Assembly: GCA_963827685.1 (NCBI GenBank)
Contig: CAWHBU010000002.1
Coordinates: 448,001-512,000 of the forward strand
Direction: 5' to 3'
DNA from: an uncultured delta proteobacterium
GTDB taxonomy: Bacteria > Desulfobacterota > BSN033 > UBA1163
Length of the DNA stretch: 64,000 bases
This document shows positions 2,567-46,964 of the stretch, piece by piece; positions within the stretch are counted from its first letter, which is position 1, and the number at the start of each line of letters is the position of its first letter. The position numbers were made by a program, and so were the translations under genes. The notes below the pieces were generated by a model. It was given only the letters and a program-made list of their open reading frames with translations. It ran no database searches and was not told where the DNA came from.

Positions 2567-2598
2567 ATTGCAGATAAAGATTAAAAGGAGGAAGTTGA

Positions 2599-4413
2599 AT
2601 GCTTGGGCTTCGGCAGAAGTTATCTCTTGGGTTCGGTGGTTTGTTGTTAATCATCTTAATTATAGGCATCCAAAGCATCATCCATCTTACCAAATTGGGA
2701 GAATCCATCGATGTCATCCTAAGGGAAAACTACCGGAGTGTCATCGCATGCCAACAAATGAAAGAGGCATTGGAGCGAATGGATAGCGGGATACTTTTTG
2801 AACTTCTCGGATATACCCAGAAAGGGGACGAACTTATCCGCAAGAATGAACTGGTTTTTGAGATGGCACTTCAAGTTGAGTTGAATAACATTACCGTTCC
2901 GGGAGAAGGAGAAAAGGCATCCCATCTCCAGGACCTTTTTGGCAAATACAAAACAGCGCTTAAGAGGATAGAGGATTCGAACGTGGCGATTACTGTCCGG
3001 CGCAATGCCTATTTTACCGATCTTTTCCCGTTATTCCTGCAGATTAAGGACACGGCCGGAGAGGTCCTCCGGATGAATCAACAGAATATGAGTGACGCGA
3101 ATGATCTGGCCCGAAATAGCGCAGCCGCAGCGCGAAGACAGATGTATATTCTTTTGGTTGCCGGTACGATTGTTGCCATCGGTTTTGTTTTCTTTACCGG
3201 CAGGTGGATTCTTCGCCCAATCAATCGCCTTATTCAATCAGCAGATGAGATCAGGCAGGGGAATCTTGATCTTGTCGTGGAGAGAGAATCCCGGGATGAA
3301 GTCGGGCACCTTTCCGAAGCCTTCAATGCAATGGCGGCAAGCCTTCGGGAATTTCGCCGGTCCGATCAGGCCAAGCTGGTTCGGATTCAACGCGCAACCC
3401 AGCAGGCATTCGACAGTCTCCCCGATGCAGTGGCGGTTGTTGACCTTCAAGGGAAAGTGGAAGTGGCAACGAAAGCAGCCGGAAACATTTTTGGGCTAAG
3501 ACCCAACACGCTCATATTTGACTTGCCATTGGGATGGATGGCTGATCTGTACAAGGACGCCCTGAAGGATGGCCGTGCTGTGCAGCAAAAAGTGGTTCAA
3601 CATTTTGTGGGGGGAGAGGAGCGATACTATCGTCCAGAGGCAATCCCAATTTTAGACAACGACAGGCAACTCACAGGGGTAATCCTTGTGCTTCAGGATG
3701 TGACACAACTCCGACAGCAGGAAGAGATAAAGAGGGGAGTCGTCTCAACGGTCTCCCATCAACTGAAGACACCGCTCACCTCCATTCGTATGGCGATCCA
3801 CCTGTTGTTAGAAGAGAAGGTAGGACCCCTTACAGAGAAGCAGGCTGAGCTTCTGGTGGCGGCCAACGAGGACAGTGATCGATTGCATAGCATCCTCAAT
3901 AACCTGCTGGATATCAGCCGAATCGAATCCGGGAGGGCTCAGATTGACTTTCGCGCGGTATCACCTCATTCGATGGTGTCAGAAGTTGTGGAGTCCTTTC
4001 GGAGAGCCGCCCAAGAACAAGGGGTATCTTTAAGCCTTGCTTTCCCGGATGATTTGCCCGAAGTTTGGGCTGACGTAACCCGAATCAACCATGTTTTTGG
4101 CAACCTGCTCTCGAATGCGCTCAAATACACGCCACCTGGAGGCAAGATTACCCTTTCTGCAAAGGCTGATGAAGAGCAGGTCCGGTTCTTCATCTCAGAT
4201 ACCGGTCAAGGTATTCCCGGTAAGTATCTCCCAAGAATTTTTGAGCAATTCTTTCGTGTGCCTGAACAAGGAACAGAGACAGGAGCAGGGCTTGGCCTTG
4301 CCATCGTGAAGGAGATCATTGAGGCTCACGGTGGGGCGATCGGGGTCGAAAGCCACGAAGGGAAGGGGACCACATTCACCTTTACCCTCCTACGCAGAAA
4401 GCCACGGGCTTAA
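2599..4413 (+). CDS. Membrane sensor histidine kinase (2 TM, HAMP, PAS-like, HisKA, HATPase_c)
   Basis: H-box VSHQLKTPL, N-box NLLSNALKY, G1 DTGQGI, G2 GAGLGLAI. Confidence 0.93.
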   Translation: MLGLRQKLSLGFGGLLLIILIIGIQSIIHLTKLGESIDVILRENYRSVIACQQMKEALERMDSGILFELLGYTQKGDELIRKNELVFEMALQVELNNITVPGEGEKASHLQDLFGKYKTALKRIEDSNVAITVRRNAYFTDLFPLFLQIKDTAGEVLRMNQQNMSDANDLARNSAAAARRQMYILLVAGTIVAIGFVFFTGRWILRPINRLIQSADEIRQGNLDLVVERESRDEVGHLSEAFNAMAASLREFRRSDQAKLVRIQRATQQAFDSLPDAVAVVDLQGKVEVATKAAGNIFGLRPNTLIFDLPLGWMADLYKDALKDGRAVQQKVVQHFVGGEERYYRPEAIPILDNDRQLTGVILVLQDVTQLRQQEEIKRGVVSTVSHQLKTPLTSIRMAIHLLLEEKVGPLTEKQAELLVAANEDSDRLHSILNNLLDISRIESGRAQIDFRAVSPHSMVSEVVESFRRAAQEQGVSLSLAFPDDLPEVWADVTRINHVFGNLLSNALKYTPPGGKITLSAKADEEQVRFFISDTGQGIPGKYLPRIFEQFFRVPEQGTETGAGLGLAIVKEIIEAHGGAIGVESHEGKGTTFTFTLLRRKPRA

Positions 4414-4540
4414 GACCGCGGATGAATGCGTGGAGGGTACCCCCTCGAAGCTCCGGAGGAGCGCAGTGGGGTGTGCTTCGGAGGGTTCCGCCATTCGAAG
4501 CATGTGGAGGGGCCATGGGCTTTAGTCCATGGGGCTCCAC
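4399..4540. repeat. REP/IS200-IS605-end-like palindrome cluster overlapping the kinase stop codon
   Basis: AAGCCACGGGCTTAAGACCGCGG and CCATGGGCTTTAGTCCATGG hairpins. Confidence 0.5.
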
Positions 4541-4614
4541 TCTCAGAAGGGCCGACCGAATTTCGAAAGAGGAGGATCATTCATGATGGATTTGCCTAGA
4601 AAACAACTTTCTTA

Positions 4615-4712
4615 AATCCCTCCCAACCTCCCTTTGCCAAAGGGAGGAATATTATCCCCCTTAGTAATCTTTTTCCTGTCAAAGACAGGCAAAAGGGGGG
4701 CGAGGGGGGATT
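4615..4712. repeat. C-rich/G-rich palindromic element
   Basis: AATCCCTCCCAACCTCCCTTTGCCAAAGGGAGG...GGGGGGATT; relatives at 31832, 45846 and 46092. Confidence 0.55.
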
Positions 4713-4737
4713 ACAGATTTGGATCATTGGGTCACCT

Positions 4738-6441
4738 ATGGTTGAAGACAGAGCCAATTCTTTTCTCAGGATGATCCGCCGCAGCCAGCGTGGAAGGTTG
4801 AAGGTTTACCTCGGTTACTGTGCAGGCGTGGGCAAAACTTATCAGATGCTTCAGGAAGGCCATCGAATTAAGGACGAAGGGATAGACGTAGTGATCGGGC
4901 TACTCGAAACGCATGGCCGTGCCGAGATCGCAAAACTTTCAGAGGGAATGGAAGTTATCCCAAGACGCCAGCAGGAGTATCACGGTGTGACTGTGGAAGA
5001 AATGGACATGGATGCAATCTTAGCCCGCAAACCGCAGGTCGCTCTCATCGACGAGCTCGCTCATACGAATGTTCCGGGGAGTCGAAACCCAAAAAGATAC
5101 CAGGACGTCCAGGACATTCTTGCAGCAGGGATACATGTCATCACTACGATGAACGTTCAACATCTGGAGAGCCTTTACAATACAGTCGAAAACGCTGTGG
5201 GGGTGAAGGTGCGCGAGCGTCTACCCGATTCCGTTCTTGCTGAGGCGGACCAGATCGTTGATGTGGACGTGAGCACGGAAGATTTACAGAAACGTCTGAG
5301 AGAAGGCAAAGTCTATCCAAAGGAGCGGATCGAGACGGCTTTAATCAATTTCTTTAAGACCTCGAATCTGGAGAAGCTTCGTGAGCTCACACTTCGTGAG
5401 CTGGCCTCGCAGATTGATTCAAGAAGACGTGAAGCTCCTGAGGAAGAAATTGGTACCACTCCGGACCAGGTGATGGTCTGTCTGAGCTCGCGAGGCCCAA
5501 ACAGTGAGAAACTGCTTCGCTATGCTTCGCGCCTGGCAGGGAGACTTAATCGGAACTGGTATGCTGTTTATGTTCAAACGCCTTCCGAGGAAGCCACTGC
5601 CATCGATGCCAAGACTCAGCGCTTCGTCTCCAATACGTTGACCTTGGCCAAACAATTGGGCGCAATGGTTTTCACTTACAAGGGCGAAGACATTGCAGAC
5701 ACCCTCCTTAGGTTTGCAAAGGAATACCGTGTGGGACATATCGTCATTGGAAGACCGATCCTGAAACCATTCTGGAAGAGGTTTGGAAAGAATAAGAATA
5801 TAGTTAAGAATCTGATCAAAAATGCCAGGGGAATCACCCTCATCGTCCTCGATACGCGGAAAGAGGAACCCCTCGTCACCCGGCCACCTTTGGAGGTTTC
5901 AGAAGAAAGGCCGTCAACTATCGGACCTTCTCAAACTGCGGCTCAACACCCGGATCGGCTGAGGCTGAGTCGGCTCCTTTCCTCCCGACGTATTGTCATC
6001 TGGGATCAGCCTGTCCGAAAAGAAACGGTCCTTCGAACATTGGCGGAGACAATCGGGAAAGATGACGGGATCGAAGATGTTGAGGCATTACTCATGGCCA
6101 TCATGAAAAGGGAGGAACAGGGCTCGACCTTTTTCAACGAAGGGGTGGCTTTCCCGCACGTGCGGTCCGATGGCCTGACCACTTCAGTAGTCAGCATTGG
6201 CCTGACAAAACTGGGTGTCTCCGATGTATCCACGGAAAAACCTATTGAACTTGTCTTTCTGATCCTTTCGCCGGCCCGAACTCCTGACAGTCAAGTTCAA
6301 ATTTTAGGTCTTGCGAGCCGGGCAGCTCAAAACAGGCGTCTTCTCCAGAGTCTTAGGTCCGTCCGGACTTCTCAAGAAGCGATGAAAGCAATCTTCGATT
6401 GGGAGGCGTACGATGAATCCAGCCCTTCGAAATTGTCCTGA
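4738..6441 (+). CDS. kdpD: KdpD N-terminal sensor domain + USP domain + PTS EIIA domain fusion (no TM, no kinase)
   Basis: GYCAGVGKTYQML, IDELAHTN, KRYQDV; USP region VMVCLSS...HIVIGR; C-terminal EIIA motif REEQGSTFFNEGVAFPH. Confidence 0.88.
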   Translation: MVEDRANSFLRMIRRSQRGRLKVYLGYCAGVGKTYQMLQEGHRIKDEGIDVVIGLLETHGRAEIAKLSEGMEVIPRRQQEYHGVTVEEMDMDAILARKPQVALIDELAHTNVPGSRNPKRYQDVQDILAAGIHVITTMNVQHLESLYNTVENAVGVKVRERLPDSVLAEADQIVDVDVSTEDLQKRLREGKVYPKERIETALINFFKTSNLEKLRELTLRELASQIDSRRREAPEEEIGTTPDQVMVCLSSRGPNSEKLLRYASRLAGRLNRNWYAVYVQTPSEEATAIDAKTQRFVSNTLTLAKQLGAMVFTYKGEDIADTLLRFAKEYRVGHIVIGRPILKPFWKRFGKNKNIVKNLIKNARGITLIVLDTRKEEPLVTRPPLEVSEERPSTIGPSQTAAQHPDRLRLSRLLSSRRIVIWDQPVRKETVLRTLAETIGKDDGIEDVEALLMAIMKREEQGSTFFNEGVAFPHVRSDGLTTSVVSIGLTKLGVSDVSTEKPIELVFLILSPARTPDSQVQILGLASRAAQNRRLLQSLRSVRTSQEAMKAIFDWEAYDESSPSKLS

Positions 6442-7479: not shown

Positions 7480-9306
7480 ATGTTTATTCAAACCTGGTTT
7501 CTTCCTTTGTCGCTTCTTGCAGCAGCGACCCTGATCGCGTTTCCTTTAAGTCGCTACATGGCGTGGATCATGGACGGAAAGTACCGGCGTTTGCCGATTC
7601 TGGGTTGGTTCGAAAGACGCTTGAACAGCGGCCCCCAAGACTGGAAGCAGTATACCATCTCGTTGCTCCTTTTCAACACGCTGCTGTTCGTCTACGGCTA
7701 TGTGGTTCTGTCACTCCAGCCGTGGATGCCGCTGAATCCGGATGGTAAGGGGATGGTGTTTCCAACGACCATCTTTCAAGCGGTGACCTCGTTCATGACG
7801 AACACGGACCTCCAGCACTATTCCGGCGAACAGGTTTTGTCAAACTTTAGCCAGATCTTCTTTGGCGTCGCCATGCTATTTATGTCTGCGGGAGTCGGCC
7901 TGAGCGCACTGACTGCGGTCATCCGGCTCTTCCGTAGCGACTCCAAAATTGGTAACTTCTTCGTTGATATGTGGCGCGTGGTGGTTTACATGTTCGTGCC
8001 GATCTGCATTGTCATAAGCCTCATATTTATCTACCAAGGCAGCCCGATGACCTTCAAAAGCTCTCATCAAGTCTCGACCCTCGAACATGGAGCCATGGGA
8101 ACCACGGACAAAGGCGAGGTGAAGCAGCAGACCATTGTGGTAGGGCCGGTGGCGGCCTGGGAATCCATCAAGATGATCGGGACCAATGGGGGCGGGTTCC
8201 ACGGTATGAACGCCGCGCATCCATTTGAGAATCCCACCGGATTGTCGAACTTTCTGAACTGTCTGTCCATGATGATTTTTCCATTCGCTCTGGTGTTGAT
8301 GTACGGCCGGATGCTGGGTCGACTGCGGCATTCGCTCGTTATTTTTTCGGTCATGATGACGTTGATGATCGGCACCATCGTCTGGTCGGTCTACTTTGAC
8401 ACCGTCAAACCGAACCCGGCGTTCGCCAGCCATTCTGCCCGAACGTTCCATATCCCCAGTGCGACAGCACCGGGAGGAAAACGAGAGGTAGCCTTCTCCT
8501 CCGTCCCAAGCTTGCCCGTGGACCAGCACCTGGGCAATCTCGAAGGTAAGGAACTGCGCTTTGGAACTTCGGCTGGGGCTACGTATGCAGCGGTGACGGT
8601 AGACGTGACTTGTGGATCCGTGAACGCGGAGGCCGACAGCCTTAACCCGATTGCCGGCTTGTCGCCCATGATTGGAATGTGGCTGAACTGCATCTACGGC
8701 GGCAAAGGTGTGGGGATGATCAACATGTTGCTCTACTTAATCATCGGGATCTTCGTGGCCGGCATGATGGTGGGCCGGACGCCCGAGTATCTGGGTAAGA
8801 AAATCGGGGGGCGCGAGGTAAAGCTCGCGATCATCGCCCTGCTGGTCCATCCCTTCATGATTCTCTTCCCCACCGGGCTCTTTGCTGCCACGGACTGGGG
8901 ACTCAAAGCTATCAGCAATCCAGGTGCCCATGGTTTTTCACAAATGCTGTACAACTTCTCTTCAGCCTCCGCCAATAATGGATCGGCCTTCGATGGATTG
9001 GCGGTTGCCTACGGTTTGGCAAGCAATCCGAATCCGGCGCCGACCGCCATCCCATGGAATATCGCAGCCGGCCTCGTGATGCTCTTCAGCCGCTATCTGC
9101 CGATTGTGGCGCCGATTGCCATGGCGGCATTTCTCGGAGCGAAGAAATCGAGCCCGTTCGGTTTGGGAACCCTGCGCGATGACACCGTTACCTTTGGCAT
9201 CCTCTTGCTCGGGACGATTCTTATTGTCGGGGCTTTGCTCTTCCTGCCGGTTGCTACGCTGGGGCCACTGGCTGAGCACTTAGGTCCCATCCCTTTCGGA
9301 GGCTAA
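7480..9306 (+). CDS. kdpA: K+-transporting ATPase subunit A
   Basis: Filter motifs TNTDLQ, GTNGGG, TCGS, ANNGS; EGKELRFG; GRTPEYLGKK. Confidence 0.97.
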   Translation: MFIQTWFLPLSLLAAATLIAFPLSRYMAWIMDGKYRRLPILGWFERRLNSGPQDWKQYTISLLLFNTLLFVYGYVVLSLQPWMPLNPDGKGMVFPTTIFQAVTSFMTNTDLQHYSGEQVLSNFSQIFFGVAMLFMSAGVGLSALTAVIRLFRSDSKIGNFFVDMWRVVVYMFVPICIVISLIFIYQGSPMTFKSSHQVSTLEHGAMGTTDKGEVKQQTIVVGPVAAWESIKMIGTNGGGFHGMNAAHPFENPTGLSNFLNCLSMMIFPFALVLMYGRMLGRLRHSLVIFSVMMTLMIGTIVWSVYFDTVKPNPAFASHSARTFHIPSATAPGGKREVAFSSVPSLPVDQHLGNLEGKELRFGTSAGATYAAVTVDVTCGSVNAEADSLNPIAGLSPMIGMWLNCIYGGKGVGMINMLLYLIIGIFVAGMMVGRTPEYLGKKIGGREVKLAIIALLVHPFMILFPTGLFAATDWGLKAISNPGAHGFSQMLYNFSSASANNGSAFDGLAVAYGLASNPNPAPTAIPWNIAAGLVMLFSRYLPIVAPIAMAAFLGAKKSSPFGLGTLRDDTVTFGILLLGTILIVGALLFLPVATLGPLAEHLGPIPFGG

Positions 9307-9399
9307 CTGAGAAGCCTTTACAATCGCTTATGGAAACTTCATTGGAGCCCTAATTAATGATGAATTGCGAGATGAAAAAAATGCTCAAAGGAGTGCGAC

Positions 9400-11562
9400 A
9401 TGAATAAAGTACCCTATATTACAGAAACCGTGAAGACGGTTCCCTTGCCTTCGGAGCAGCAGCGGTCGCTGCGCCGGATGAAACGAAGAGCACTACTGGA
9501 GAAGAAGACAACGATAGCGGCATTGAAGCAGGCGTTCGTCATGCTGCGGCCCGACATCCAGTGGAAGAATCCTGTAATGTTTGTAGTAGAGGTGGGTGCC
9601 TTCCTGACTCTTTTGTTTATTGCTCAAGCGGCCTGGGGTAAGGAAGCGAGTCAAGTGCCGATTACGTATTTTATCGCGCTTGACGCATGGCTTTTCTTGA
9701 CTGTGTTGTTTGCGAACTTTGCCACTGCCCTTGCCGAGGCTCGCGGTAAAGCCCAGGCCGATTCCCTCAGGCGAGCCCGTCACGACACGGTGGCCTACCG
9801 TTTGAATGCTGCCGGAGCAATCGAGGAGGTTTCCTCGACGGTTTTGAAACCGGGCGATCGGGTAGTCGTACAGGCGGGACAAACGATTCCTGGAGATGGG
9901 GAGATCATGGAAGGGATCGCTTCCGTCGATGAGTCGGCGATTACCGGCGAGTCGGCGCCGGTCATTCGCGCCGCTGGCGGCGACCGATCCGGCGTGACCG
10001 GGGGCACCGTTGTACTTTCCGATCGGATCGTTGTTCAGATCACCAGCGGAGCAGGTGATTCGTTCCTCGACCGGATGATCGCGCTGGTGGAGGGGGCCAT
10101 CCGTCAGCGAAGTCCGAATGAGATTGCTCTGACGCTGTTATTGTCCGCCTTCACGCTGGTTTTCTTGATCGTGGTGATTCCGCTTTGGGCGATGGCCTGG
10201 AACGCCGAGCAATACATGATGGCTTACCTGGGCATTCAACAACCTTTGAGAAGCCTTGGCACCGATGTTCCGACCCTTATTGCGCTCTTAGTCTGCCTCA
10301 TTCCTACCACGATTGGCGCTTTGCTTGCCGCCATCGGAATTGCGGGCATGGATCGCGCTCTGCAGGCCAACATTATCGCCAAGAGCGGAAAGGCAGTGGA
10401 GTTGGCCGGCGACATAGACGTCGTGCTGCTCGATAAGACAGGGACGATCACGATAGGGAACCGGAACGCAACAACGTTCTTACCGATAGGAAATTATTCG
10501 GCTGCCGACGTTGGGCGGCTGGCTGCCCTGGCGTCCGCCGCCGATGAGACGCCCGAGGGAAAGAGCCTTGTTAGGTTGTTCGAGAAGCAAAGCCAAACCC
10601 CAGTCAGCGTGCCGCTTGACGCGCAGTTTGTGCCATTTACAGCCCAAACGCGAATGAGCGGCATCGATCTTCCTGACGGCCGGCGAATACGAAAAGGAGC
10701 ACCAGACGCCGTGATCAAATTCGTCGAGGACAACCATGGCAGCGTGCCGGGTGATCTCAGCGCGTTGGTTAATTCCGTCGCATCCAAAGGCGCAACCCCC
10801 CTGGTCGTCGCTGATGACGGCCACATTGCGGGCGTGGTCGTTCTTGAGGACATTTTGAAACCCCACATGCATGAGCGTTTCGAGCGGCTGAGGAGAATGG
10901 GGTTGCGGACCGTTATGATCACCGGAGATAATCCTCTAACGGCTGCAACCATCGCTGCACGGGCGGGGGTCGATGACTTTCTCGCTCAGGCCACGCCGGA
11001 GACCAAGCTCTCTTACATCCGCAAGGAGCAGGCTGGCGGGAAGCTTGTGGCCATGATGGGCGACGGCACGAACGACGCTCCGGCCCTGGCCCAGGCAGAC
11101 GTTGCTCTGGCCATGAACGCAGGCACCCAGGCAGCTAAAGAAGCGGCCAACATGGTCGATTTGGACAGTGACCCCACCAAGTTGATCGAAGTTGTGGAAG
11201 TCGGAAAGCAGCTCTTGATAACACGGGGCGCTCTGACGAGCTTCTCGATCGCCAATGATGTGGCCAAATACTTTGCGATCATCCCGGCGCTTTTTGCAGG
11301 GACTTTACCCTGGCTCAAGGCGATCGACATCATGCATCTCCATTCACCGACCTCGGCTATTTTGTCGGCTGTGATCTTCAACGCGCTCATTATTCCTGCG
11401 CTCATCCCGGTCGCGCTCAAGGGAGTCAAATACCGACCTCTCGGTGCCGATGCTCTATTGCGCAGGAACCTGCTCATCTGGGGACTGGGAGGCGTGATTC
11501 TACCCTTTATCGGCATCAAACTGATTGACCTCATCATGGTGGGTTTTCATTTGACTATTTGA
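9400..11562 (+). CDS. kdpB: K+-transporting P-type ATPase subunit B
   Basis: [27 protein letters not shown]. Confidence 0.98.
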
Positions 11563-37284: not shown

Positions 37285-37343
37285 CTCTTCGTCACTCCTG
37301 CCCCTCTGTCCCTGTTGAGACTGTGCCCGCGATCCTCCTTTTT

Positions 37344-37506
37344 GTCATTGCGAGCGATCCCGCCTTAGCGGGGGAGCGTGCCTGCACGCCGAAGTGCCTG
37401 TCGAAACGCTTTCGTGTAGGTAGGGTTACGGCACGCAGGCGTGGCAATCTCTTCGTTTTCAACTCGTCCTGAGATTGCTTCGGTCGTTTTACTCCCTCGC
37501 AATGAC
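37344..37506. repeat. GTCATTGCGAG...CTCGCAATGAC palindrome with nested inserts
   Basis: Perfect 11-bp terminal IR; inner GCAATCT/AGATTGC; homologous to 25482-25661. Confidence 0.75.
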
Positions 37507-37527
37507 AGGGTGAGGTAATATCAATTT

Positions 37528-37926
37528 CTATTTTGCCTTTCTTGCTGGCGGGGCGGCAAATTCCACGACGGTATAGGCCAATGCCCAGCACTCCTGTTCA
37601 GAATACTGAGTCCATGCGATCATCGAAGAATTGGGAATTCCCTTCGAGATCACTTCAAAGACCTTTTCAATGTTTCCTTTTGCAGTAGGCCATTCTTTCA
37701 AAGGTTTTTGGAAATCGGTTGGCGGAGGCTTGAGGACAGCTCCGGCTGGGCCCTTTCCGTCTCCTTTACTGCCATGACAGGGGAGGCAGGTCTGCTCAAA
37801 AAGTTTCTTACCTTGCTTTAGCAGTTCAGGGGTCTTCTTTGGAGGCCCCGGGTCTTTTGCGAGAGCCGTACCCAGAATGAAAAAAAGAAAAGATCCAGCA
37901 ATCATTAGCCATAATATCTTTCTCAT
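37528..37926 (-). CDS. Periplasmic monoheme cytochrome c
   Basis: Signal peptide, CLPCH, G.G.G, distal Met in GIPNSSM. Confidence 0.9.
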   Translation of the reverse strand: MRKILWLMIAGSFLFFILGTALAKDPGPPKKTPELLKQGKKLFEQTCLPCHGSKGDGKGPAGAVLKPPPTDFQKPLKEWPTAKGNIEKVFEVISKGIPNSSMIAWTQYSEQECWALAYTVVEFAAPPARKAK

Positions 37927-37986
37927 TTTTGCCTCCTTGGTGATTAGACTTTTCTTAATATGCTTTTTGGGGTAGTGGTGACCCGG

Positions 37987-38070
37987 TCAAACGCGGCGCT
38001 TTATGTCAGCAGGGAGGATACGAAACTCTTTAGCCGCTGAGTCAACGAACTCAACGCTGTACTCAGCCAC
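37987..38070 (-). pseudogene. Truncated RelE/ParE-like toxin
   Basis: VAEYSVEFVDSAAKEFRILPADIKRRV-stop, starting 1 nt after the antitoxin stop. Confidence 0.65.
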
Positions 38071-38071
38071 T

Positions 38072-38254
38072 TCAGCGCTCCCCTTGCTCCATCTCTGCCT
38101 TCAGCTTACTCCAGGGCACCGTGGCTTCGTTCTTTCGGGACTCAGAGACCAAGACATCGTAGAAGTCCTCCCACAGCTTTCCCCACTCCTCAAGATCAAT
38201 CAGGACCGCTTTCTTTTTGCCAGAATCATCAACCACGAACTGAACTCCTTTCAT
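38072..38254 (-). CDS. Putative type II antitoxin
   Basis: MKGVQFVVDDSGKKKAVLIDL...TVPWSKLKAE; AAGGAGG RBS. Confidence 0.7.
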   Translation of the reverse strand: MKGVQFVVDDSGKKKAVLIDLEEWGKLWEDFYDVLVSESRKNEATVPWSKLKAEMEQGER

Positions 38255-38455
38255 TGAACCCTCCTTCTCGCATGTTGACCTACTGTCGTCTATTATACAA
38301 AGAAGCAGCACAGTGTCTCAAATAAATTATCCACAAGTGAGGAGGATAAAGGACCGGCTAAAGAGGAGAAAATAAAAATTTCCCTGTTTGCATAGAAGGC
38401 GGCAGGGAATTAGCCAAAAGACACGTTATTCTGGAGCATCTTGTTGGGTCATCCC

Positions 38456-39205
38456 CTATTCGATCAAATCTCTGTCATCACGTGAGAACTCGACGGGGAC
38501 CGCCTTGAGCCCCAGTCTATCAAGGGCCTCCCTCGTCCCCCTGACGCATGTGTCCGGAGTATGGGGAGCGAGCACCACGGACACAATCAGGTCCGCAAGG
38601 GACACCGGGAGTGAAACATGGTCTGGTATCGGCAGCATCATGTTAGGCCAGTATACGATTCTGAGCTCGTTGTCGAGTCGGAAGTGAAGATCCTTATAGA
38701 AAAAGATTCCCGGCGTTCTGGAGTAGTTGATGGGCTGTCCCCCAGCGTGGTCAAAGTATCTTACGAGCGATATGTCCAGGGGCCAGAACATAGGCGCTTT
38801 GTCACACAGATGCTGCAAACGCCTCACTGTGCTTCTTATTGCTACTCCTGGCGGATTCCTTATATAGGCCTTCCACATTAGATCCAGGTCGCAATCGCTG
38901 ACACACCAGCAACTTATGTATGTCCGGTTTCTATCTCGAATCCGTTTCTGTCGTTCTGTTTCAATCACTTTCGGGGCCCCTACAGATTCAAGCCAGGCAC
39001 CCATGTCAAGCAGTTGCACTCTAGAGTAAGTTCCTTCAAATCTGTCTTGCAAACGGTCTGCCCTGCAAAGATAGAGGGTACTCTTCTTAAGAAGCGATTC
39101 AAATTTCCAGTAGTCCATGTATCTCCAGACGGAAGCATCAAGGTTGTGCGGTAGCTTACATGCAGGATTAACTTCCCTCGGTATTTTCAGGTATTCATCG
39201 CCCAT
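38456..39205 (-). CDS. DUF2971-like protein
   Basis: VWRYMD...D.FEG...YISCW...MWKAY...GVAI...YK...E.R...VLAP. Confidence 0.7.
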   Translation of the reverse strand: MGDEYLKIPREVNPACKLPHNLDASVWRYMDYWKFESLLKKSTLYLCRADRLQDRFEGTYSRVQLLDMGAWLESVGAPKVIETERQKRIRDRNRTYISCWCVSDCDLDLMWKAYIRNPPGVAIRSTVRRLQHLCDKAPMFWPLDISLVRYFDHAGGQPINYSRTPGIFFYKDLHFRLDNELRIVYWPNMMLPIPDHVSLPVSLADLIVSVVLAPHTPDTCVRGTREALDRLGLKAVPVEFSRDDRDLIE

Positions 39206-39246
39206 TTAAGTCCAACCCGTCATTGCATTTTTTTATTTCCGCAACA

Positions 39247-39276
39247 ATTTTATGTCTGGTCACAGGAAGTTGTCAA
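39247..39276 (-). promoter_or_regulatory. Sigma-70 promoter candidate
   Basis: TTGACA-18 nt-TAAAAT upstream of the DUF2971-like gene; homologous sequence at 40592-40620. Confidence 0.55.
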
Positions 39277-39339
39277 TTGCGAGGGTGAATAAGAATATCG
39301 TCTTTTTACGCAGAAGGCGACAGCATTGGCAAAGCTAGA

Positions 39340-40542
39340 TTATTGGTTGAAGGGGAACAGCCATTCGCCCTCTTCGGAGTAGTTGAAGCTTTTATCATAC
39401 CCAAATTCCCTCCAGATGTAGTCAAACATCGGACGAACAGCTTTTGCCACATCGTGCTTAGTTTCTAAATGCGTATCCTTCGGAACATGGTGCAGTAGAG
39501 GGCGGATGTCTTCGCTTTGGGATACTCGTCCAGATATTCGCTCTGTGCGCATGGAGTATCCCCGTATGTTGAGAAGGGCAGTATGGATGAAGAAGGGGCC
39601 TGAAACACCGGATTCCTTAAGAGAGGTCAAATAACGGTGAAAGGTAGTAATGATCTTACATTCGTACGCAATGTTGGGAATGTCGTAGCGGTTCTCCTGC
39701 ATATCGTAGTGGCTCTGCAGCATGGATGAATTGTACGCTTTGACCTGCCCTAGACCTGTAACCTCAGTCACCGCATATGGCACACGGTAATTGGTTTCGC
39801 ATGCAAACGTAAAGTTTGAACGGCCACTGATCTCCGAACTCAAGCTGCCAGAAGAGTAGTATATCGGTTCGAATAGGGTGTTGAAATTTCCGGACAAACT
39901 GCTTAGGTCCAGTTTAATCGAGGGAACTTCGGGAACAATAACAAGAGCACAGATGCCCTTGTCCTCGATTCCCTTGAAGTACTTCTTGCTCTTTAAGGCG
40001 GCATAGTATCCGTCAATTATCTCCTGCACTTCTTCTTTTCTGGTTGACGGGCCACTGCTACGGAAGAATGTTTCAACGTCGGAGCTCTCCATTGCAATCG
40101 TGATTGTGCGAGTGCGCCTGTAGTATCGATTATCATCGTATTTCACTTGGTGAAGGTAGCGATCTGGCTCGATCTTCAAGATGAGAACCTTTAGGCCATT
40201 GCAAAGAGGGACCTCTCTATCGAAAAGATTCTGGACTCGTGGCGAAATGCCGCTGGTTAGGATCTGGAAGATCTGCTGTTTTACGGCGTCGTCAAATTGG
40301 ATGCCAGATATGCTCGTAGGTATGCCGTTGGTTTCAGCGATGCCGAAAAACAAATAACCTCCCTGCGAATTAGCGAGTGCACTGATGTCTTTGCAGAGCT
40401 CCCGCTTTTCTTTCTCCGTATTCATCTTGAGTTCAATTTTGTATTCGATGTGTGCACTTTCTGGTACATGAAGCAAGACAAGCGACTGGAGATGATTTTC
40501 AGCGATCTCGTGAAGGGGAATACCGTCAAGTACTTGTACCAT
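39340..40542 (-). CDS. AlbA_2 (Schlafen-like) domain protein
   Basis: ESAHIEYK...KDISALANSQGGYLFFGI...YYRR. Confidence 0.85.
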   Translation of the reverse strand: MVQVLDGIPLHEIAENHLQSLVLLHVPESAHIEYKIELKMNTEKEKRELCKDISALANSQGGYLFFGIAETNGIPTSISGIQFDDAVKQQIFQILTSGISPRVQNLFDREVPLCNGLKVLILKIEPDRYLHQVKYDDNRYYRRTRTITIAMESSDVETFFRSSGPSTRKEEVQEIIDGYYAALKSKKYFKGIEDKGICALVIVPEVPSIKLDLSSLSGNFNTLFEPIYYSSGSLSSEISGRSNFTFACETNYRVPYAVTEVTGLGQVKAYNSSMLQSHYDMQENRYDIPNIAYECKIITTFHRYLTSLKESGVSGPFFIHTALLNIRGYSMRTERISGRVSQSEDIRPLLHHVPKDTHLETKHDVAKAVRPMFDYIWREFGYDKSFNYSEEGEWLFPFNQ

Positions 40543-40692
40543 CTCAGACTTCCTTTCTCATTGAAAGCCTAACAGTGTATTTTCTTTTCTATTATGCCTA
40601 GTCAGAGGAAATAATCAATTCCTTTATAAATGTCGCCTTTTACACAGAAGGCAAAGGACTTTGAGGCTTTCACCTGCAAGGGTCAGTTTTCA

Positions 40693-40767
40693 GTGTAACA
40701 GGACGCACGAGGCGTTTGATAGGCTGCACCGCGGGACGCCAAATCGCTCTCCATGCGCTTGCGGGGC
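40693..40767 (-). mobile_element. Degenerate attC-like site
   Basis: After the stop codon: GCCCCGC, 5 nt, CATGGAG ... CTCGTG, 6 nt, GTTACAC. Confidence 0.45.
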
Positions 40768-41604
40768 TCACTTTTGTTCTTCGATCTCGACAATACCTGG
40801 GAAACGTTCGCAGAGGAACTCCAAGTAGGCGGCTGTGTTCTTGGCTTTCTGGATTTCTCGATCAGATATAGATTTCCGATGCTTTCGAAAACTGTCGAGG
40901 ACAATCTGGTACAGGACACCACGCCATCTTCGTGACGATGTTCCTTTGACTGCAAGAAAGTTCAGAGTCCTCAATGGTTCATTCACTTTCTCACGGGGCA
41001 CCTGGTACCGCAGTAAGGAGACATCCAAGAGGAGCCGCACCGTCTGATCACTGGCAGAGTGCTCCGTGATTCTCTGCAATTCTTGAAAGGCCTGTTCAGT
41101 CATTACGGAACCTGCAAACTCCAATTCGTTCGCCAGCTTGTAGGCATCCAATATTGCTCTTCCTGCGAAACAGGTTTTCCTCGAAACATAGTTTCCATAC
41201 GTGATGGCGCCCCGTAGTGGTAAGCCCTGCTCAAACATGTATTTGCAGAGGATTTGCGCCGAAAGGATCAAAGCATGCCAACTTCGGATATTGTCGGTTA
41301 GATCCCCTCCTGGCTCGATTGGATTCATCAGTATTATCGTATCTGAAAACGCGGCCCAAGCCACTCTTTCGATATAACGAACAAAGAGAATGGCTTCTTG
41401 GTCATCGGAACCAGCGGTCTCACGAACATACTTGATGACGGTTTCTTCAGCATCGACAATTCTGTCGACAACCAAAGCCGCCGCTTTGACCGAATCATTG
41501 TTCTCAAGAAAGCTTTGGTAACCAAGTATGTCAAACAGTCCTAGTATGCCTGTCTGCACCGTTGACGACGCAGTTTTCATTGTCTGCATTTTCTGGCGAC
41601 CCAA
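40768..41604 (-). CDS. Class III nucleotide cyclase-like protein
   Basis: FDILGY, FSDTI, LRGAITYG, GRAILDAY, resembling the two-Asp cyclase core. Confidence 0.6.
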   Translation of the reverse strand: MGRQKMQTMKTASSTVQTGILGLFDILGYQSFLENNDSVKAAALVVDRIVDAEETVIKYVRETAGSDDQEAILFVRYIERVAWAAFSDTIILMNPIEPGGDLTDNIRSWHALILSAQILCKYMFEQGLPLRGAITYGNYVSRKTCFAGRAILDAYKLANELEFAGSVMTEQAFQELQRITEHSASDQTVRLLLDVSLLRYQVPREKVNEPLRTLNFLAVKGTSSRRWRGVLYQIVLDSFRKHRKSISDREIQKAKNTAAYLEFLCERFPGIVEIEEQK

Positions 41605-41632
41605 ACATTGTATTTTATAGACACTTTATTTC

Positions 41633-42820
41633 CTATAAATGAACTCCTTCCACCATCTTCAGTACGAAAAACTGTAGCTGGTTGCACAGGAAAGTTCCGA
41701 AGGCCTCAGAATCCTCCACCATATTACTCTTAACAAAATAAATCTTCAGGGTTTGAGGGTTGGTGGTATCGATAATCGCACCCTGATTTTTGTCGGCGAT
41801 GGCACCTATCTTTGACAATAAATCAAGGGCATACCGCCGTTGCTCGCTCGTTGGATTCTCTTGTTTGCGAAGCAGGTTGTTAACCATCATTACCAAAAGG
41901 CATACAAACTCGGAAAATGATTCCGTGTTTTTGGATTCCACACGTTGTTCAAGCAACCAGAGCAAGTTGTCCATACATACGAGCGTTCGCACGGCATCCG
42001 GCCAACGAACACGAGCACCACATTTCTCGCACAGCACATCATCAGATGTGCTCCAGACTTTTCTGTCCCCACATTCGGGGCATTTACGAACCATTGCCAT
42101 GTTTCGGATCTGCTTCTGTTCATCCTTGCGCAGTAGCTGATAGAGATAGTCCATATGCTCACGGTTTTTTGGAATACTCATAAACTTTTGAGCCATGGTT
42201 TCCAAATTCGCGACTACCTCCCGGGGCGAACGTCCTTTTGACACCTCGCGGGCGAGGGTGAGTAGGAGGGGCACGTCCAAATTGGTATTCTTGAGGAAGA
42301 ACGATCGGGCCATTTCATCCAGAGTACTTGGGGACCACTGGCAATGCGGACAAGGCATACTCACATAATTGATCAGCCTTCCGCAATTCTGGCAGCTATA
42401 GATTTGCGTGTATGCCGACGGCGCTGTCCCGTCTTCAAATTTCTTTTCGCTGCTAGGGCGCTCACGCTTTAGTTTTTGAAGTTCCCCTTGTAGAAGATGG
42501 CGTTGCTGTTCATCAATTTGAAATTCGCCACTGTTCAACAGCCGTTCCAGAATAACAATAGCGCGGTTTGTAATTACTGCCTTCTTGTAGAAATAGGCCA
42601 ACAGTAAATGTGCTTGAAGTGAGTTGGGATTCCGGTTGACATTAGCCTCTACTGCCCCCTCTGTTTCGACTAGCACCTGACGTGCCTCGTCCAGCCTCCC
42701 CAATTTCTGGAGGGATGATGCCTTTTCGAGCCGCTCGCTAACCTGTTTGAAAAGCATTTCTTCGTACAATAAGTCGGATAGGTTTTGCTGTTTCTTCTTT
42801 CCAAATAGACTAAAGACCAT
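41633..42820 (-). CDS. TPR-like + double zinc-ribbon protein
   Basis: Helical TPR-like N-terminus; CQNC/CPHC and CPEC/CEKC pairs. Confidence 0.7.
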   Translation of the reverse strand: MVFSLFGKKKQQNLSDLLYEEMLFKQVSERLEKASSLQKLGRLDEARQVLVETEGAVEANVNRNPNSLQAHLLLAYFYKKAVITNRAIVILERLLNSGEFQIDEQQRHLLQGELQKLKRERPSSEKKFEDGTAPSAYTQIYSCQNCGRLINYVSMPCPHCQWSPSTLDEMARSFFLKNTNLDVPLLLTLAREVSKGRSPREVVANLETMAQKFMSIPKNREHMDYLYQLLRKDEQKQIRNMAMVRKCPECGDRKVWSTSDDVLCEKCGARVRWPDAVRTLVCMDNLLWLLEQRVESKNTESFSEFVCLLVMMVNNLLRKQENPTSEQRRYALDLLSKIGAIADKNQGAIIDTTNPQTLKIYFVKSNMVEDSEAFGTFLCNQLQFFVLKMVEGVHL

Positions 42821-42844
42821 GATTCCTCCTTGGCTGGTTGATAT

Positions 42845-43720
42845 TTATCGAATATGTCTCAACAGTTCCTCATAGTTCTTGAGGCGATATTCAGTCAGTG
42901 GGTGAATACACTCTAGACAGAAACGCCCGAATGATAACGATCGATCCCTTAGAATGGTCTTTGCATTCTCGAAATACGAGCCAGTCACGATTTCTTCGAC
43001 TGGATCGATTAGGCCAAACCGAAAAGGGAGGACGCCTGTGTTCAACATAATTGCGATCATCCCCAATGAGTAAATATCGGCTTGCGGTGAAAGCGACCAC
43101 GATCCAGAAAATCGTTCAGGAGCCATGAAGATCAGGGTTCCAGCAGCGTAGGACGTGATCATCTCTTCCCGATTCACAAGCCCTTTACGGGCCTTGGTGT
43201 TTGCAAGCATTTGGTCGCCAGCCAATCGCGAAATGCCCCAGTCCGCGATCTGAACCTTCAAAGGTTTTTTAGATAGAATCAGCACATTTGATGGTTTCAA
43301 GTCTAGATGGAGAAGCGTCCAATGGCGATAAGCATAATCCAATCCGCTGATCAATTGGCGAAGAGTGGACAGTACCTCTTTTTCGCTCAAAGACCCGTGT
43401 TCCTTCAATAGGTCATGTAGACTTCCTTCAAGCATGGGCATGATCGCTGCAAGATGGAAGTCAAGTCGCCCAATCTTGAGCAGAGGCAGAATAGCGGGAT
43501 GGTCGAGGGTTACCCAGTGGTTCAGCTCCTGTTCGACAATTCGTTCGTCGTTTGCGAGGTCGAATGTTTTCACTGCAAGACCGGAGCGATAAATCCAGTC
43601 AAATCCCTCTACAGGATCCTTTTTGAGTAGCCAGACTCGACCCATACCGCCGTCTTTAGCGGAAATTACCTGGTAATAGTGACCATCAAGTAGCACTCGC
43701 TTCGTATGTGTGGTTTCCAA
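42845..43720 (-). CDS. Hanks-type Ser/Thr protein kinase (kinase domain only)
   Basis: GGMGRV, AVK, HLDLKPSN, DWG, GT..FMAPE, DIYSLG. Confidence 0.92.
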   Translation of the reverse strand: METTHTKRVLLDGHYYQVISAKDGGMGRVWLLKKDPVEGFDWIYRSGLAVKTFDLANDERIVEQELNHWVTLDHPAILPLLKIGRLDFHLAAIMPMLEGSLHDLLKEHGSLSEKEVLSTLRQLISGLDYAYRHWTLLHLDLKPSNVLILSKKPLKVQIADWGISRLAGDQMLANTKARKGLVNREEMITSYAAGTLIFMAPERFSGSWSLSPQADIYSLGMIAIMLNTGVLPFRFGLIDPVEEIVTGSYFENAKTILRDRSLSFGRFCLECIHPLTEYRLKNYEELLRHIR

Positions 43721-43757
43721 TTGGGACCTCTCAAGGGAAGCAACAAGGGATTTCTAT

Positions 43758-44252
43758 TTAACGACTGAAAAATTTCTTCCCGAACATCATCCCTTTCGGA
43801 TTAACATCAGCAACAATGGTTATATTAAGAACCATTCTAAAATCTGATGCATTAATATCCCCAAAGTATGTTCGAGTATAAATTACAGCCTCCCTATTCC
43901 TTTCCCAAATTGAATAAATAGATCTAGATTTCTCATCTTTCAACTCTTTCGTAGACATCCCATAATCTTCTATTAAATTACGATATACCTTATTCCAAAG
44001 ACCGCTCTCGTCACGAGATTTGGCAAAAGTAGTAATGCAATCCGTTGCAAGACTGATTTTATAGATTTTATTCTCTGTCACACAAACCATCGTTTTCCAA
44101 TTTGCACCCAAATGTTCAACATCTTTTCCACGATATATTTTCTCATCCTCAAAAGCCTGTTCAAAAGTTCTATAATCGGGAACTGAAATTTCTGTTAGTT
44201 CATTCTCAACTTCCAAAACATTTTGCCCAATCTGATAATTTCCGAATTTCAT
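43758..44252 (-). CDS. Hypothetical protein
   Basis: 164-aa AT-rich ORF, co-oriented with short gaps. Confidence 0.65.
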   Translation of the reverse strand: MKFGNYQIGQNVLEVENELTEISVPDYRTFEQAFEDEKIYRGKDVEHLGANWKTMVCVTENKIYKISLATDCITTFAKSRDESGLWNKVYRNLIEDYGMSTKELKDEKSRSIYSIWERNREAVIYTRTYFGDINASDFRMVLNITIVADVNPKGMMFGKKFFSR

Positions 44253-44283
44253 TTTTTGCCTTCCACCCCCATGAGGTTCTCAT

Positions 44284-44805
44284 TTATGCCGATTTTAACC
44301 GTGATGGATACACCGTCGTCTTTACCCTTTGAACGATCTTTGCTAACTCCAAGAGCCCCATACTCTTTAAGGCATCTGTGTCGTCTAGAGACATCCCTAA
44401 TAGATTTTCAACCATCCTGCTTCGGCTAAGATTTAAAGCTTGAGCTAGGATATCCACCTTCTCAAGAATATCCCGATCAATTGTTATAGCTACTTTAATT
44501 CTGGCTTCCTTTCCGAAGCTCACCGAAAAAACCTCGTCCTCAGTAAACGTAACACTATCATCGCTCTTTAAATCTCCGACTCCCATCGCAGCAGGCTCAA
44601 ACCCCAGGACAGTACCGCTAAATGTACCATCAGCCTTCTTTAAAATATTCTTCACAAGAACAGATCGATCATTGTAGTGCAGGATCACTATATTCCCCTC
44701 CTCTACAGGAAGACCAATTTCTAACCGTTTCCCAGGTACGTAGCCGCTATGACCATAAATAATCCCCATCCCCTTTGGGCGCTTTATAAATTTCCACATT
44801 GTCAT
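44284..44805 (-). CDS. Protein with C-terminal ribbon-helix-helix (CopG-like) domain
   Basis: IKVAITIDRDILEKVDILAQALNLSRSRMVENLL; GGAGGT RBS. Confidence 0.7.
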   Translation of the reverse strand: MTMWKFIKRPKGMGIIYGHSGYVPGKRLEIGLPVEEGNIVILHYNDRSVLVKNILKKADGTFSGTVLGFEPAAMGVGDLKSDDSVTFTEDEVFSVSFGKEARIKVAITIDRDILEKVDILAQALNLSRSRMVENLLGMSLDDTDALKSMGLLELAKIVQRVKTTVYPSRLKSA

Positions 44806-45055
44806 ACCTCCATAAACATACTTTAGATTACATACCTTATTCTACTATGTTCAAATTGAATTGTCAATGAAACCATTTGACTAAGCAAAGAAAATGCAAT
44901 TTGACAAACCCCCGGGCATTTGCCGCCTTGAAATTAAACCCTCCTGTCTTGTAACTAACTGTAAACACAGAGCTTTCTGATCTCTAAGGAGTTTTTAAAT
45001 CTAATGCACCTTGAGGGATTCATCCATAGCAGGTGGTGTCGCATGATCGCTTGAT

Positions 45056-45805
45056 TTATTTCCCTTCGTGGCTAATTTCTTCAAGGTATTTTGAGATTTC
45101 CTCGTGGGTGGGTTTTTTAACATTGGTAACGTAATAATCATGGAATAAAAGGTCACCCATCTTATTACATTCGGTTATACCTTCTTCTACAACCTCTCCG
45201 ACAGCTACGTCCATTGGAACTAATATTCCAATCATTGCATAAGTGGCTTCAAAGCTAATCTCTTCAATCTCAGACCTATATTTATGACTGATTGTTTCAA
45301 ATCCTCTTTTTAGGGTATTCCGATGAGTTTCTGAAAATGGGAGACTATTTTTCGAACTGACAATAAAGTAATATCTGAGCTTGTTGTCCTTCCCTCCCAG
45401 TCCTGTTGATATAAACCCACTTTCCTCCTGCAAAAGAACGCTTTCAAGGAAGGTTCTGCATTCCTTCAGAGATAATAAAGCCCAATCTCTCAAATTCCCT
45501 TCTGAAATCTTTAGATATTTTTCAAGTATTCTACACGACTCTGCAGTTCCAAGATGAGCCAAAAGGATTAATATCCTTTTCTTTAGTTCAATAGGGGTAT
45601 GCTTATCAAATAGTTTATCACTCTCCGTTAAGACTTCTTCATAATCGACATTGTCGAAGTCCATTGTTTCTGAGAAACTAAAATATTCCTGCTGTATGGA
45701 CAAATCGATCGGTTCGTCAATTAGGGCAAAGCTGTCCAAAACATCTTTAGAATTTTTGTGATTATCTTTATTTCTTTTCACGTCATTCATAAGGGAGACC
45801 CACAA
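45056..45805 (-). CDS. Hypothetical protein
   Basis: 249-aa ORF with no competing long ORF. Confidence 0.7.
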   Translation of the reverse strand: MWVSLMNDVKRNKDNHKNSKDVLDSFALIDEPIDLSIQQEYFSFSETMDFDNVDYEEVLTESDKLFDKHTPIELKKRILILLAHLGTAESCRILEKYLKISEGNLRDWALLSLKECRTFLESVLLQEESGFISTGLGGKDNKLRYYFIVSSKNSLPFSETHRNTLKRGFETISHKYRSEIEEISFEATYAMIGILVPMDVAVGEVVEEGITECNKMGDLLFHDYYVTNVKKPTHEEISKYLEEISHEGK

Positions 45806-46198
45806 TTATTAGTCAGTCCATAATCGTATGGACACAGAAGACTAAATCCCTCCTCCCCTCCCTTTACAAAACGGATTCCCCTCTTTGGAAAAGAGGGGTT
45901 AGGGGAGATTTTCTGAAGAATATGTCTGCTCAATTATAGACCTCTTAGTTACTCGTTCATTGCTGAACTGGTTTCGGAAGCCCTGTACTACGAGTAAAAA
46001 TGTACGCCTTTTGGTAAAAACTGTCAAACATCAAAGAAAGTATATGATTTATCGGATAGGTTAAAGGAGGAGGAAAGTATCGGCATCAGAAAATCCCTCC
46101 TGACCCCCCTTTGCCTACCTGCGGCAGGTAGCTGCCAAAGGAGGGAAGGGGATCAGAAAATCCGCCTCTTGGGGTTTAGAAAGGAGGAGTAGGGTGTC

Positions 46199-46519
46199 CT
46201 ATCCGAGTCTCACCGGTTCTTTTGACAGTTTTTCTTCCCGCTCCTTTGCCTCCTTCTCCGTTTCCCATATGGAGATGACCGGGAAGAGTTTTGAGAAGAG
46301 GACGAAAGCCAGAGTGAACCCTGCACAAAGACCCGCCGTCATAGACTACTCCACCCAAGAAGGAGTGTAAGCACCCCGTGCGTATGGAAGACGGGGCTCG
46401 CTGAAGGAGGGGATGATAATGAGGAACCGCTCGAGCCACATCCCGATAATGATGCAAATGGAGGAAACCGTCAGTCCAGAGATGGTGCGCTTGAAAACCA
46501 ATATGGGAAAGGTCAAAAT
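46199..46519 (-). pseudogene. NrfD/PsrC/ActC-family membrane subunit, C-terminal fragment
   Basis: Manual translation: IIIGMWLERFLIIIP...YTPSWVE*...FSKLFPVISIWE; internal TAG at 46346-46348; no 5' part. Confidence 0.75.
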
Positions 46520-46622
46520 TTATTTGACATTAACAAGAGATTGGATATTTAATAGTCTCATGTGGCAAGCAGTCTGTTGGCATTTGGATGGGGTTTGGTG
46601 GGAGTCCAAAACTCTAAGAAGA

Positions 46623-46685
46623 AAAGCCCTTGTAGTATTAGGCCTGCCTTCGGTAGGCGGAGAGATTCAGACTACAAGGGCTTTC
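46623..46685. terminator. Long hairpin, possible bidirectional terminator, with a palindrome inserted in the loop
   Basis: AAAGCCCTTGTAGT ... ACTACAAGGGCTTT 14-bp stem. Confidence 0.4.
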
Positions 46686-46964
46686 TTATTCTTTACTTAA
46701 AGTTAAAGTATATTATTAGTATTAATATCACATTCATTTGATATTATTTGCTAATAAATATTTCGACATCAAACCAAAATTGAGGACAAAGAGGAAGAAG
46801 AAAGAGAGGGCCGCGCCGCTTAATTCTCAGGCAGAGGTAAGTGGTATGGTATTTACATTTGGTGAGATCATTATCAAGGACTTCCTGTAGGGAGCACTTC
46901 CAAAGATTCCTAAAATTGAAATGTTATTAGGAGACTTATCAGAATCATTCACTAATGCTCTCCG

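Follow-up and report, generated by a model that had tools for sequence, protein, structure and literature searches.

A group of five co-oriented genes was analysed in a 64,000-nucleotide stretch of DNA from an uncultured delta proteobacterium (GenBank assembly GCA_963827685.1, contig CAWHBU010000002.1, positions 448,001 to 512,000), hereafter called the window. The original prediction, made from the sequence alone, grouped these genes into a single candidate operon for signalling or defence, with a tetratricopeptide repeat (TPR)/zinc-ribbon protein, a serine/threonine kinase and a nucleotide cyclase-like protein forming a sensor-kinase-cyclase relay. The following open reading frames (ORFs) were found, listed with their window coordinates.

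44805..44284, minus strand: RHH173, 173 aa; a domain of about 95 aa of unknown function followed by a candidate C-terminal ribbon-helix-helix domain; putative regulator.
44252..43758, minus strand: unk164, 164 aa; near-orphan, function unknown.
43720..42845, minus strand: STK291, 291 aa; bare Hanks-type Ser/Thr kinase domain; first gene of the cassette.
42820..41633, minus strand: TPRZn395, 395 aa; helical TPR-like domain at the N-terminus (roughly residues 19-121), with two Zn ribbons (four CxxC) and, at the C-terminus, a helical/beta domain; second in the cassette.
41604..40768, minus strand: palm278, 278 aa; solo protein with a predicted class III cyclase fold and, at the C-terminus, a conserved helical extension.

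The gaps between successive genes were 31, 37, 24 and 28 bp, which confirmed the co-orientation and the spacing of less than about 40 bp noted at the outset. All five are real genes with homologues and not chance ORFs. The likely true start of palm278 is the ATG at 41589, which matches an identical database protein.

Homologues of TPRZn395 were located in two species-representative genomes and on 27 metagenome contigs, giving 30 locus entries that represent 29 distinct loci (L012 and L015 are the same place); L017/18/19, L020/21, L033/34 and L041/42 were near-duplicates. Among the 29 distinct loci, 22 had a kinase 41-81% identical to STK291 immediately upstream of the TPRZn gene. Of the seven loci without a kinase, six contained less than 150 nt before the TPRZn start, and the seventh was L036, which is described below. 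The two genes overlapped by 4 bp in L018, L020, L023 and L037, and the identities of the kinase and TPRZn were matched, being 81% and 73% in L016, the closest relative examined, and about 50% for both elsewhere. By contrast with this pair, which was syntenic, palm278, RHH173 and unk164 were present in none of the 29 loci, L016 included (tblastn, E<=1e-3); at least 990 bp downstream of TPRZn were available in 20 of the 30 entries. The locus counts leave out the closest TPRZn relatives (P0104-P0106; 90/80/76% identity) and an 80%-identical palm278 (P0002).

The search from the side of palm278 gave the same picture. Ten genome loci of its homologues, with flanks of up to 8 kb, contained no kinase, TPRZn, SLFN or other window gene. 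The neighbours of these ten loci were mutually unrelated and included two GDP-mannose dehydratases, murI and purU, an IS30-type transposase, PIN and Phd toxin-antitoxin genes, and a cluster of UvrD-PDDEXK, DpnII and KAP-NTPase genes. Among 400 other genomes of the phylum, one contained TPRZn (G243, where the contig is that of L012) and 11 contained the palm278 family (E<=1e-8); no genome held both, and neither the kinase nor TPRZn was detected within 1.5 kb of the 11 palm278 loci. TPRZn was also missing from all 40 closer relatives, and viral contigs contained no TPRZn or palm278 relative. The modularity of the five-gene locus is well supported by these counts, which showed the palm278 gene to be independent of the kinase-TPRZn pair. 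Of the predicted operon, the kinase-TPRZn part held up, as a pair in a defence-like setting, while palm278, RHH173 and unk164 fell away from it; the expected co-occurrence of the three central genes in other genomes was likewise borne out for the kinase and TPRZn and failed for palm278, which was never found with either. The conserved kinase-TPR/Zn-cyclase synteny and the relay were not supported.

The kinase matched the Pfam Pkinase domain (PF00069) at 97.8 bits (cut-off 31.7; E 8.9e-28). Across 14 aligned kinase homologues, the GGMG loop, K51, E63/E65, the motif H138-L-D140-L-K142-P-x-N145, D160-W-G, and P201-E202 were invariant, in agreement with the predicted stand-alone kinase with intact motifs. 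STK291 carried no sensory domain of its own and was essentially a bare kinase domain. The best PADLOC match was mad6 (1.6e-34), and the PADLOC models of PD-T4-6 matched STK291 at up to 2.4e-30 and all 14 cassette kinases. The PD-T4-6 match spanned the kinase core only (e.g. positions 8-212 in a profile of 311) and scored 104 bits versus 98 bits for Pfam Pkinase. Because the mad6 and PD-T4-6 matches were limited to the kinase core and had Pkinase-like scores, they were given little weight. The NCBIfam equivalogs were missed widely (MAD6, 48.5 versus 460 bits; PglW, 44.9 versus 990 bits), and PknB-type kinases likewise.

The TPRZn395 family comprised 105 homologous clusters, nearly all of 386-395 aa. 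The four predicted CxxC pairs, C143/146, C157/160, C247/250 and C264/267, were invariant or at least 90% conserved in 29 aligned sequences and formed two Zn ribbons. The other conserved blocks in these sequences were CMDNLLWLxEQR and NNLLRKQExP in the C-terminal part and an N-terminal FGLFG-KK tail. Zn_ribbon_15 matched 25 of the 29 members and TPR_19 matched 21 (both at E<=0.1; best TPR_19 match 2.2e-6), and the TPR score of the window copy itself was 14.2 bits, below the Pfam cut-off of 25. The AlphaFold2 model (mean predicted local distance difference test, pLDDT, 87.2) showed a helical-repeat N-terminal domain. Its fold matches were to generic TPR proteins only, at Z 8-9.5 over residues 19-121, a range common for helical repeats. 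For the remainder of the protein, no Foldseek match was obtained in a search with the full-length model (best E 0.18), and the ESM Atlas gave only Zn-ribbon leads below 0.9 for the C-terminal part. Weak PADLOC matches to Cas10, DrmB and HEC-08 (E 6.5e-4 to 1.4e-2) fell on the Zn-ribbon/helical stretch. In L036 (209-3245), residues corresponding to about 136-394 of TPRZn, including both Zn ribbons, were fused, in a 578-aa protein, to a weak match to DnaJ (J-domain) that stayed below threshold (25.8 versus 27.8 bits), and a 428-aa leucine-rich repeat protein preceded this fusion in the place of the kinase. This arrangement hints at a portable Zn-ribbon/C-terminal module that can be combined with varied partners.

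The palm278 protein had no match in Pfam, NCBIfam or PADLOC, and the same was true of 38 relatives; its family comprised 103 clusters, none with a Pfam domain. PF00211 matched none of the 39 family members at E<=0.1, the family profile had no match among the PDB sequences at E<=10, and hhalign found nothing between palm278 and the one PF00211 (class III cyclase) domain of this genome. The structure gave the assignment. The AlphaFold2 model (pLDDT 90.7) superimposed on 3et6_B (VIA) with a Z of 14.0 and a root-mean-square deviation of 3.6, with 170 of 183 residues aligned, and 25 cyclase entries matched it at Z>=9.5 (VIA). Foldseek returned 1e-6 to CyaC and 141 matches at E<=0.001. The Pycsar-type cCMP/cUMP synthases 8jsf, 7r65 and 8jsz scored Z 10.4-10.6, and GGDEF domains were lower, at most Z 9.2. 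From this model the class III cyclase fold, which the original prediction had made decisive for its proposal, can be predicted with confidence. Both Asp motifs seen at first held throughout the family: the residues invariant in 39 sequences were D25 (in FDILGYQ), D88 (in F86-S-D88-T-I), R131, G137 and G148, together with F239, H242, K244, K253 and T257 in the C-terminal part. D25, at the end of strand 1, and D88, in the beta-hairpin, occupy what we take to be the positions of the two metal-binding Asp of class III cyclases. On reading of the motifs, the helix-4 Asn/Arg pair of these cyclases does not look conserved. The predicted fold makes a solo, independent nucleotidyl cyclase or transferase of the class III-like kind the best reading of palm278.

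In the ESM Atlas, the 30 clusters nearest to palm278 were all unnamed, and the nearest named ones, Guanylate_cyc (0.87) and DUF2652 (0.86), serve as leads only. Weaker relatives (E 1e-9 to 1e-15) were present in genomes of the phylum as solo genes of about 240-300 aa (L080-L085), with the strand-1 motif variants DILGM, DILGF, DIMGF and DVLGY; these similarities point to a broader superfamily of stand-alone proteins with a putative cyclase fold. Three of the ten genome copies of the palm278 family looked broken by frame changes or truncation (L008:8001-8449, L009:8001-8716 and L010:8001-8252), one of them in the isolate genome of Nitrosomonas ureae Nm13, which suggests that the gene decays frequently.

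The ribbon-helix-helix assignment of RHH173 is tentative: the window protein scored 18.3 bits with RHH_1 (PF01402), below the cut-off of 20.5, and its relatives P0217 (22.2 bits) and P0221 (28.8 bits) exceeded it; the match to DUF6364 was also sub-threshold. Both halves of RHH173 also exist as separate small proteins, and the protein was found in none of the 40 closer relatives. Only three clusters among 5.8 billion sequences contained unk164, which had no family match in Pfam, NCBIfam, PADLOC or PHROGs and a single weak match of 63 residues in the 40 closer relatives.

The five genes lie in an island with several other features, which are listed below.

37906..46237, no strand: strain-specific island of about 8.3 kb, which holds all the listed genes and is absent from the same-genus genome G006.
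39340..40542, minus strand: SLFN/AlbA_2 (Schlafen) protein, 400 aa; Pfam SLFN_AlbA_2 6.4e-18; 225 bp downstream of palm278.
38456..39205, minus strand: PDC-S31-like protein; PADLOC PDC-S31 8.8e-14 (single-gene defence candidate); phrog_34615 2.4e-20.
38072..38311, minus strand: small RelB/Phd-like antitoxin-type ORF (weak); sub-threshold RelB-like match in Pfam (0.0019).
44839..44867, minus strand: sigma-70-like promoter match upstream of RHH173; 11/12 consensus, from a scan that yielded no more sites than shuffled sequence.
45056..45805, minus strand: unk249, a gene of low GC content at third codon positions (GC3, 36%) at the far end of the island; no Pfam, NCBIfam, PADLOC or PHROGs match.

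The same-strand ORFs beyond palm278 followed at wider gaps of 225, 134 and 144 bp. In G006, no more than about 90 bp separated the cytochrome c block (window 37523-37905) from the next block, which matches window 46238-46517. Because G006 joins these two blocks almost directly, the segment of about 37.9-46.2 kb is an insertion of about 8.3 kb specific to this strain, and the description of the genes as inserted among housekeeping genes could thereby be sharpened. The same locus was arranged differently again in G010. GC3 was 29% for unk164 (overall GC 34%), 36% for unk249, 43% for RHH173 and 50-53% for STK291, TPRZn395 and palm278. The ends of the island carried no tRNA and no convincing flanking direct repeats or att-like repeats. 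The promoter and terminator scan as a whole returned no more sites than in shuffled sequence.

Several side observations concern the borders of the island. The window retains only about 280 bp (46238-46517) of the 3' end of a 431-aa ORF that, in G006 (L044:1586-2881), heads a larger gene cluster beside the cytochrome c gene; with only this remnant left, the arrival of the island was accompanied by loss or replacement of the G006-type cluster. Short ORFs at 46176-46516 had no Pfam match. Both edges (37343-37507 and 45780-46115) carried short elements with inverted-repeat arms (I4, 37343-57/37493-507; I1, 45887-916/46086-115). When the contigs of four DNA metagenome runs were mapped onto window 37300-46700, the summed contig depth of these repeats was about 140-1190 in runs X3, X5 and X7, versus single digits in most adjacent bins, and many loose contig ends were found at 37470/37507 and 45875/45878. 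The edge elements look like high-copy repeats of the miniature inverted-repeat transposable element (MITE) or repetitive extragenic palindromic (REP) kind, common to many members of the community, and may mark a recombination hotspot. For unk249, three other metagenome runs gave a summed depth of about 20-195 and showed many variant positions, which suggests a widespread or multi-copy gene that is perhaps tied to the adjacent repeat. In runs X5 and X7, pieces covered TPRZn and the kinase and none covered palm278, although contigs of this kind cannot prove absence.

The cassette was found in varied company. It was located in metagenome-assembled genomes of Bacteriovoracaceae and Burkholderiales besides this lineage, near a type I restriction-modification system (L031), near Mrr and DUF2971 genes (L019, with the DUF2971 protein at 9376-10221, about 2.2 kb downstream), near a resolvase (L038) and near a group II intron (L030). 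In L037, a PDC-S31-like gene (2593-3029) followed TPRZn by 36 bp and was 31% identical to the window copy (38456-39205). PDC-S31-like and DUF2971-type genes thus recur near kinase-TPRZn, the window copy being two genes away, and this recurrence may be co-location in defence islands or a loose association. In L016, the cassette was flanked on one side by a Clp_N-AAA ATPase and ClpP and on the other by an ADP-ribosylglycohydrolase and a PNP_UDP_1 phosphorylase (1523-4794 and 7505-8979), a set that resembles nucleotide- or ADP-ribose-based conflict systems. The rarity of the cassette, its spread across lineages, its variable flanks and its defence and mobile neighbours fit a defence or conflict cassette.

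Taken together, the five genes probably represent three or more separately inherited units that form a mosaic within a strain-specific, defence-type island: a kinase-TPRZn sensor-effector pair, a solo palm278, and a unit of RHH173 and the orphan gene. The first unit is a two-gene cassette, with the kinase gene followed 24 bp downstream by TPRZn. Since the kinase has no sensor domain, TPRZn is proposed as the sensor or regulatory subunit and the kinase as the effector. TPRZn would hold the kinase in check and free or activate it upon binding a phage-derived protein through the TPR or nucleic acid through the Zn ribbons. The active kinase might then phosphorylate host or phage proteins, and phage growth would stop in an abortive response of the Stk2 type. 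In the second unit, palm278 carries the two putative metal-binding Asp residues and an Arg for phosphate binding; it probably forms or uses up a nucleotide alone, without being wired to the kinase. The third unit would consist of the low-GC RHH regulator and the orphan gene. From these features we infer which protein senses, which acts and what enzymatic product, if any, is formed. A complex prediction for the kinase and TPRZn scored 0.00 in both runs, which, as no controls were included, is evidence neither way. Only as a tentative proposal, which we hold to be somewhat doubtful, could kinase-TPRZn be a new two-gene anti-phage system, in which a sensor whose C-terminal fold has found no match controls a minimal abortive-infection kinase, and palm278 a new clade of solo immune or signal cyclases with no linked effector.

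Several points weigh against the mosaic reading and its defence role. The mad6 and PD-T4-6 matches in PADLOC reflect the generic kinase core, and several cassette loci adjoined ordinary genes (ribonucleotide reductase, glutathione S-transferase and glycosyl hydrolase). It is solely from the patchy distribution and the neighbours that we infer a defence role for kinase-TPRZn. The pattern-based locus scans overlook divergent relatives. In addition, the 28-bp gap between TPRZn and palm278 contains no predicted terminator, so co-transcription is possible in this genome; with this spacing, a locally acquired link between kinase-TPRZn and palm278 is conceivable, although no observation speaks for it.

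Two other explanations concern the cassette itself. Kinase-TPRZn might be a selfish addiction module of the toxin-antitoxin kind, with the kinase as toxin and TPRZn as antitoxin, maintained by post-segregational killing and with no anti-phage role. The two genes are tightly or translationally coupled, they occur patchily (in 1 of the 400 phylum genomes and in none of the 40 relatives), they adjoin resolvase, intron and toxin-antitoxin genes, and kinase toxins exist (HipA; and DS-6, PMC13092281). However, a 395-aa multi-domain partner is far bigger than typical antitoxins and resembles a ligand-binding module, the kinase gene comes first, and toxin-antitoxin and abortive-infection roles can coexist, and we regard this explanation as unlikely. 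Alternatively, the pair could serve ordinary cellular signalling, as a kinase with its scaffold or substrate in some accessory physiology outside conflict. Regulators that combine a Hanks kinase with a TPR partner are common, and some cassette loci lie amid metabolic genes. We consider this quite unlikely, given that the cassette was not found in the 40 relatives or in 399 of the 400 genomes of the phylum, that it lies in a strain-specific island, and that its flanks vary in almost every locus, unlike those of a conserved pathway.

The explanation closest to the original prediction is that all five genes form one operon, in which TPRZn senses, the kinase relays and palm278 makes a nucleotide second messenger. 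The co-orientation and the gaps of 24-37 bp favour it, as do the single promoter-like site before the first gene with no terminator-like site between the genes, the cyclase fold of the model, and the SLFN/AlbA_2 protein downstream as a possible nucleic-acid effector. These features were outweighed by the separate inheritance of the genes, namely the lack of palm278, RHH173 and unk164 at all 29 TPRZn loci even at the 81%/73% identity of L016, the lack of kinase or TPRZn at any of the 21 palm278 loci, and the lack of any other genome with both TPRZn and palm278 among the 400. Moreover, the GC3 values of the first two genes (43% and 29%) departed from the 50-53% of the other three, and a single operon appears improbable. 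AlbA_2/Schlafen domains are nucleic-acid-directed, and a Pycsar- or Panoptes-like system of palm278 as cyclase with the Schlafen/AlbA_2 protein as nucleotide-activated effector has in its favour the class III fold, the similarity to Pycsar cyclases (Z 10.4-10.6) and the same strand at 225 bp; yet neither SLFN/AlbA_2 nor any other gene recurred beside the 21 palm278 homologues, PADLOC gave no Pycsar match and the 225-bp gap bears its own weak promoter-like match, which leaves this explanation highly improbable.

The mosaic reading of the locus has several implications. Close packing of genes within a defence island should not be taken as evidence of a single system. The kinase-TPRZn cassette, with at least 105 sequence clusters and a wide distribution, would be a separable sensor-effector pair that is directly testable. 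The palm278 family, with at least 103 clusters, would enlarge the class III-like enzymes, and if it is active, the role of a cyclase that has no linked receptor becomes a question. Neither the kinase-TPRZn cassette nor the palm278 family is modelled as such in Pfam, NCBIfam, PHROGs or PADLOC, and in the part of the literature that the search covered, neither a kinase plus TPR/Zn-ribbon defence pair nor the palm278 family was described. To our knowledge, very few examples of kinase-based phage defence exist, most of them single-gene, and little is settled about the way in which these kinases detect infection.

Among known systems, PycC and the canonical class III adenylyl and guanylyl cyclases share with palm278 the predicted fold and, on our reading, the two Asp at the strand-1 and hairpin positions. 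Unlike class III cyclases, palm278 has no sequence-level match and carries an extra conserved C-terminal helical hairpin; unlike Pycsar, it has neither a PADLOC match to PycC nor any recurrent neighbour, such as a TM- or TIR-type effector, in 21 loci. Like mCpol of Panoptes, palm278 is a small putative nucleotide cyclase of the palm type that stands alone and has a defence setting, but in Panoptes the cyclase reportedly works with a membrane or CARF effector, and palm278 lacks any conserved partner. In fold, palm278 was closer to class III cyclases (Z 14) than to palms of the GGDEF type (Z 9.2), with no mCpol structure among the listed matches. MAD6 of MADS, mad6 being the best PADLOC match of STK291, and PglW of BREX/Pgl are kinases that belong to defence systems, but Pfam and PADLOC scans found no other MADS or BREX genes in the island. 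PD-T4-6, in PADLOC and DefenseFinder, is a one-gene kinase system with no TPR/Zn partner, whereas STK291 is paired with TPRZn. Stk2 is reportedly a staphylococcal abortive-infection defence built on a Hanks kinase and described as a single gene. Like Stk2, STK291 is a stand-alone eukaryote-like Ser/Thr kinase with intact motifs in an accessory locus, and by analogy Stk2 may serve as the model for its mode of action, in which phage-triggered phosphorylation would arrest the cell. In contrast to single-gene Stk2, which is set apart here by its description, the minimal 291-aa kinase of this locus is paired with a 395-aa TPR/double-Zn-ribbon protein.

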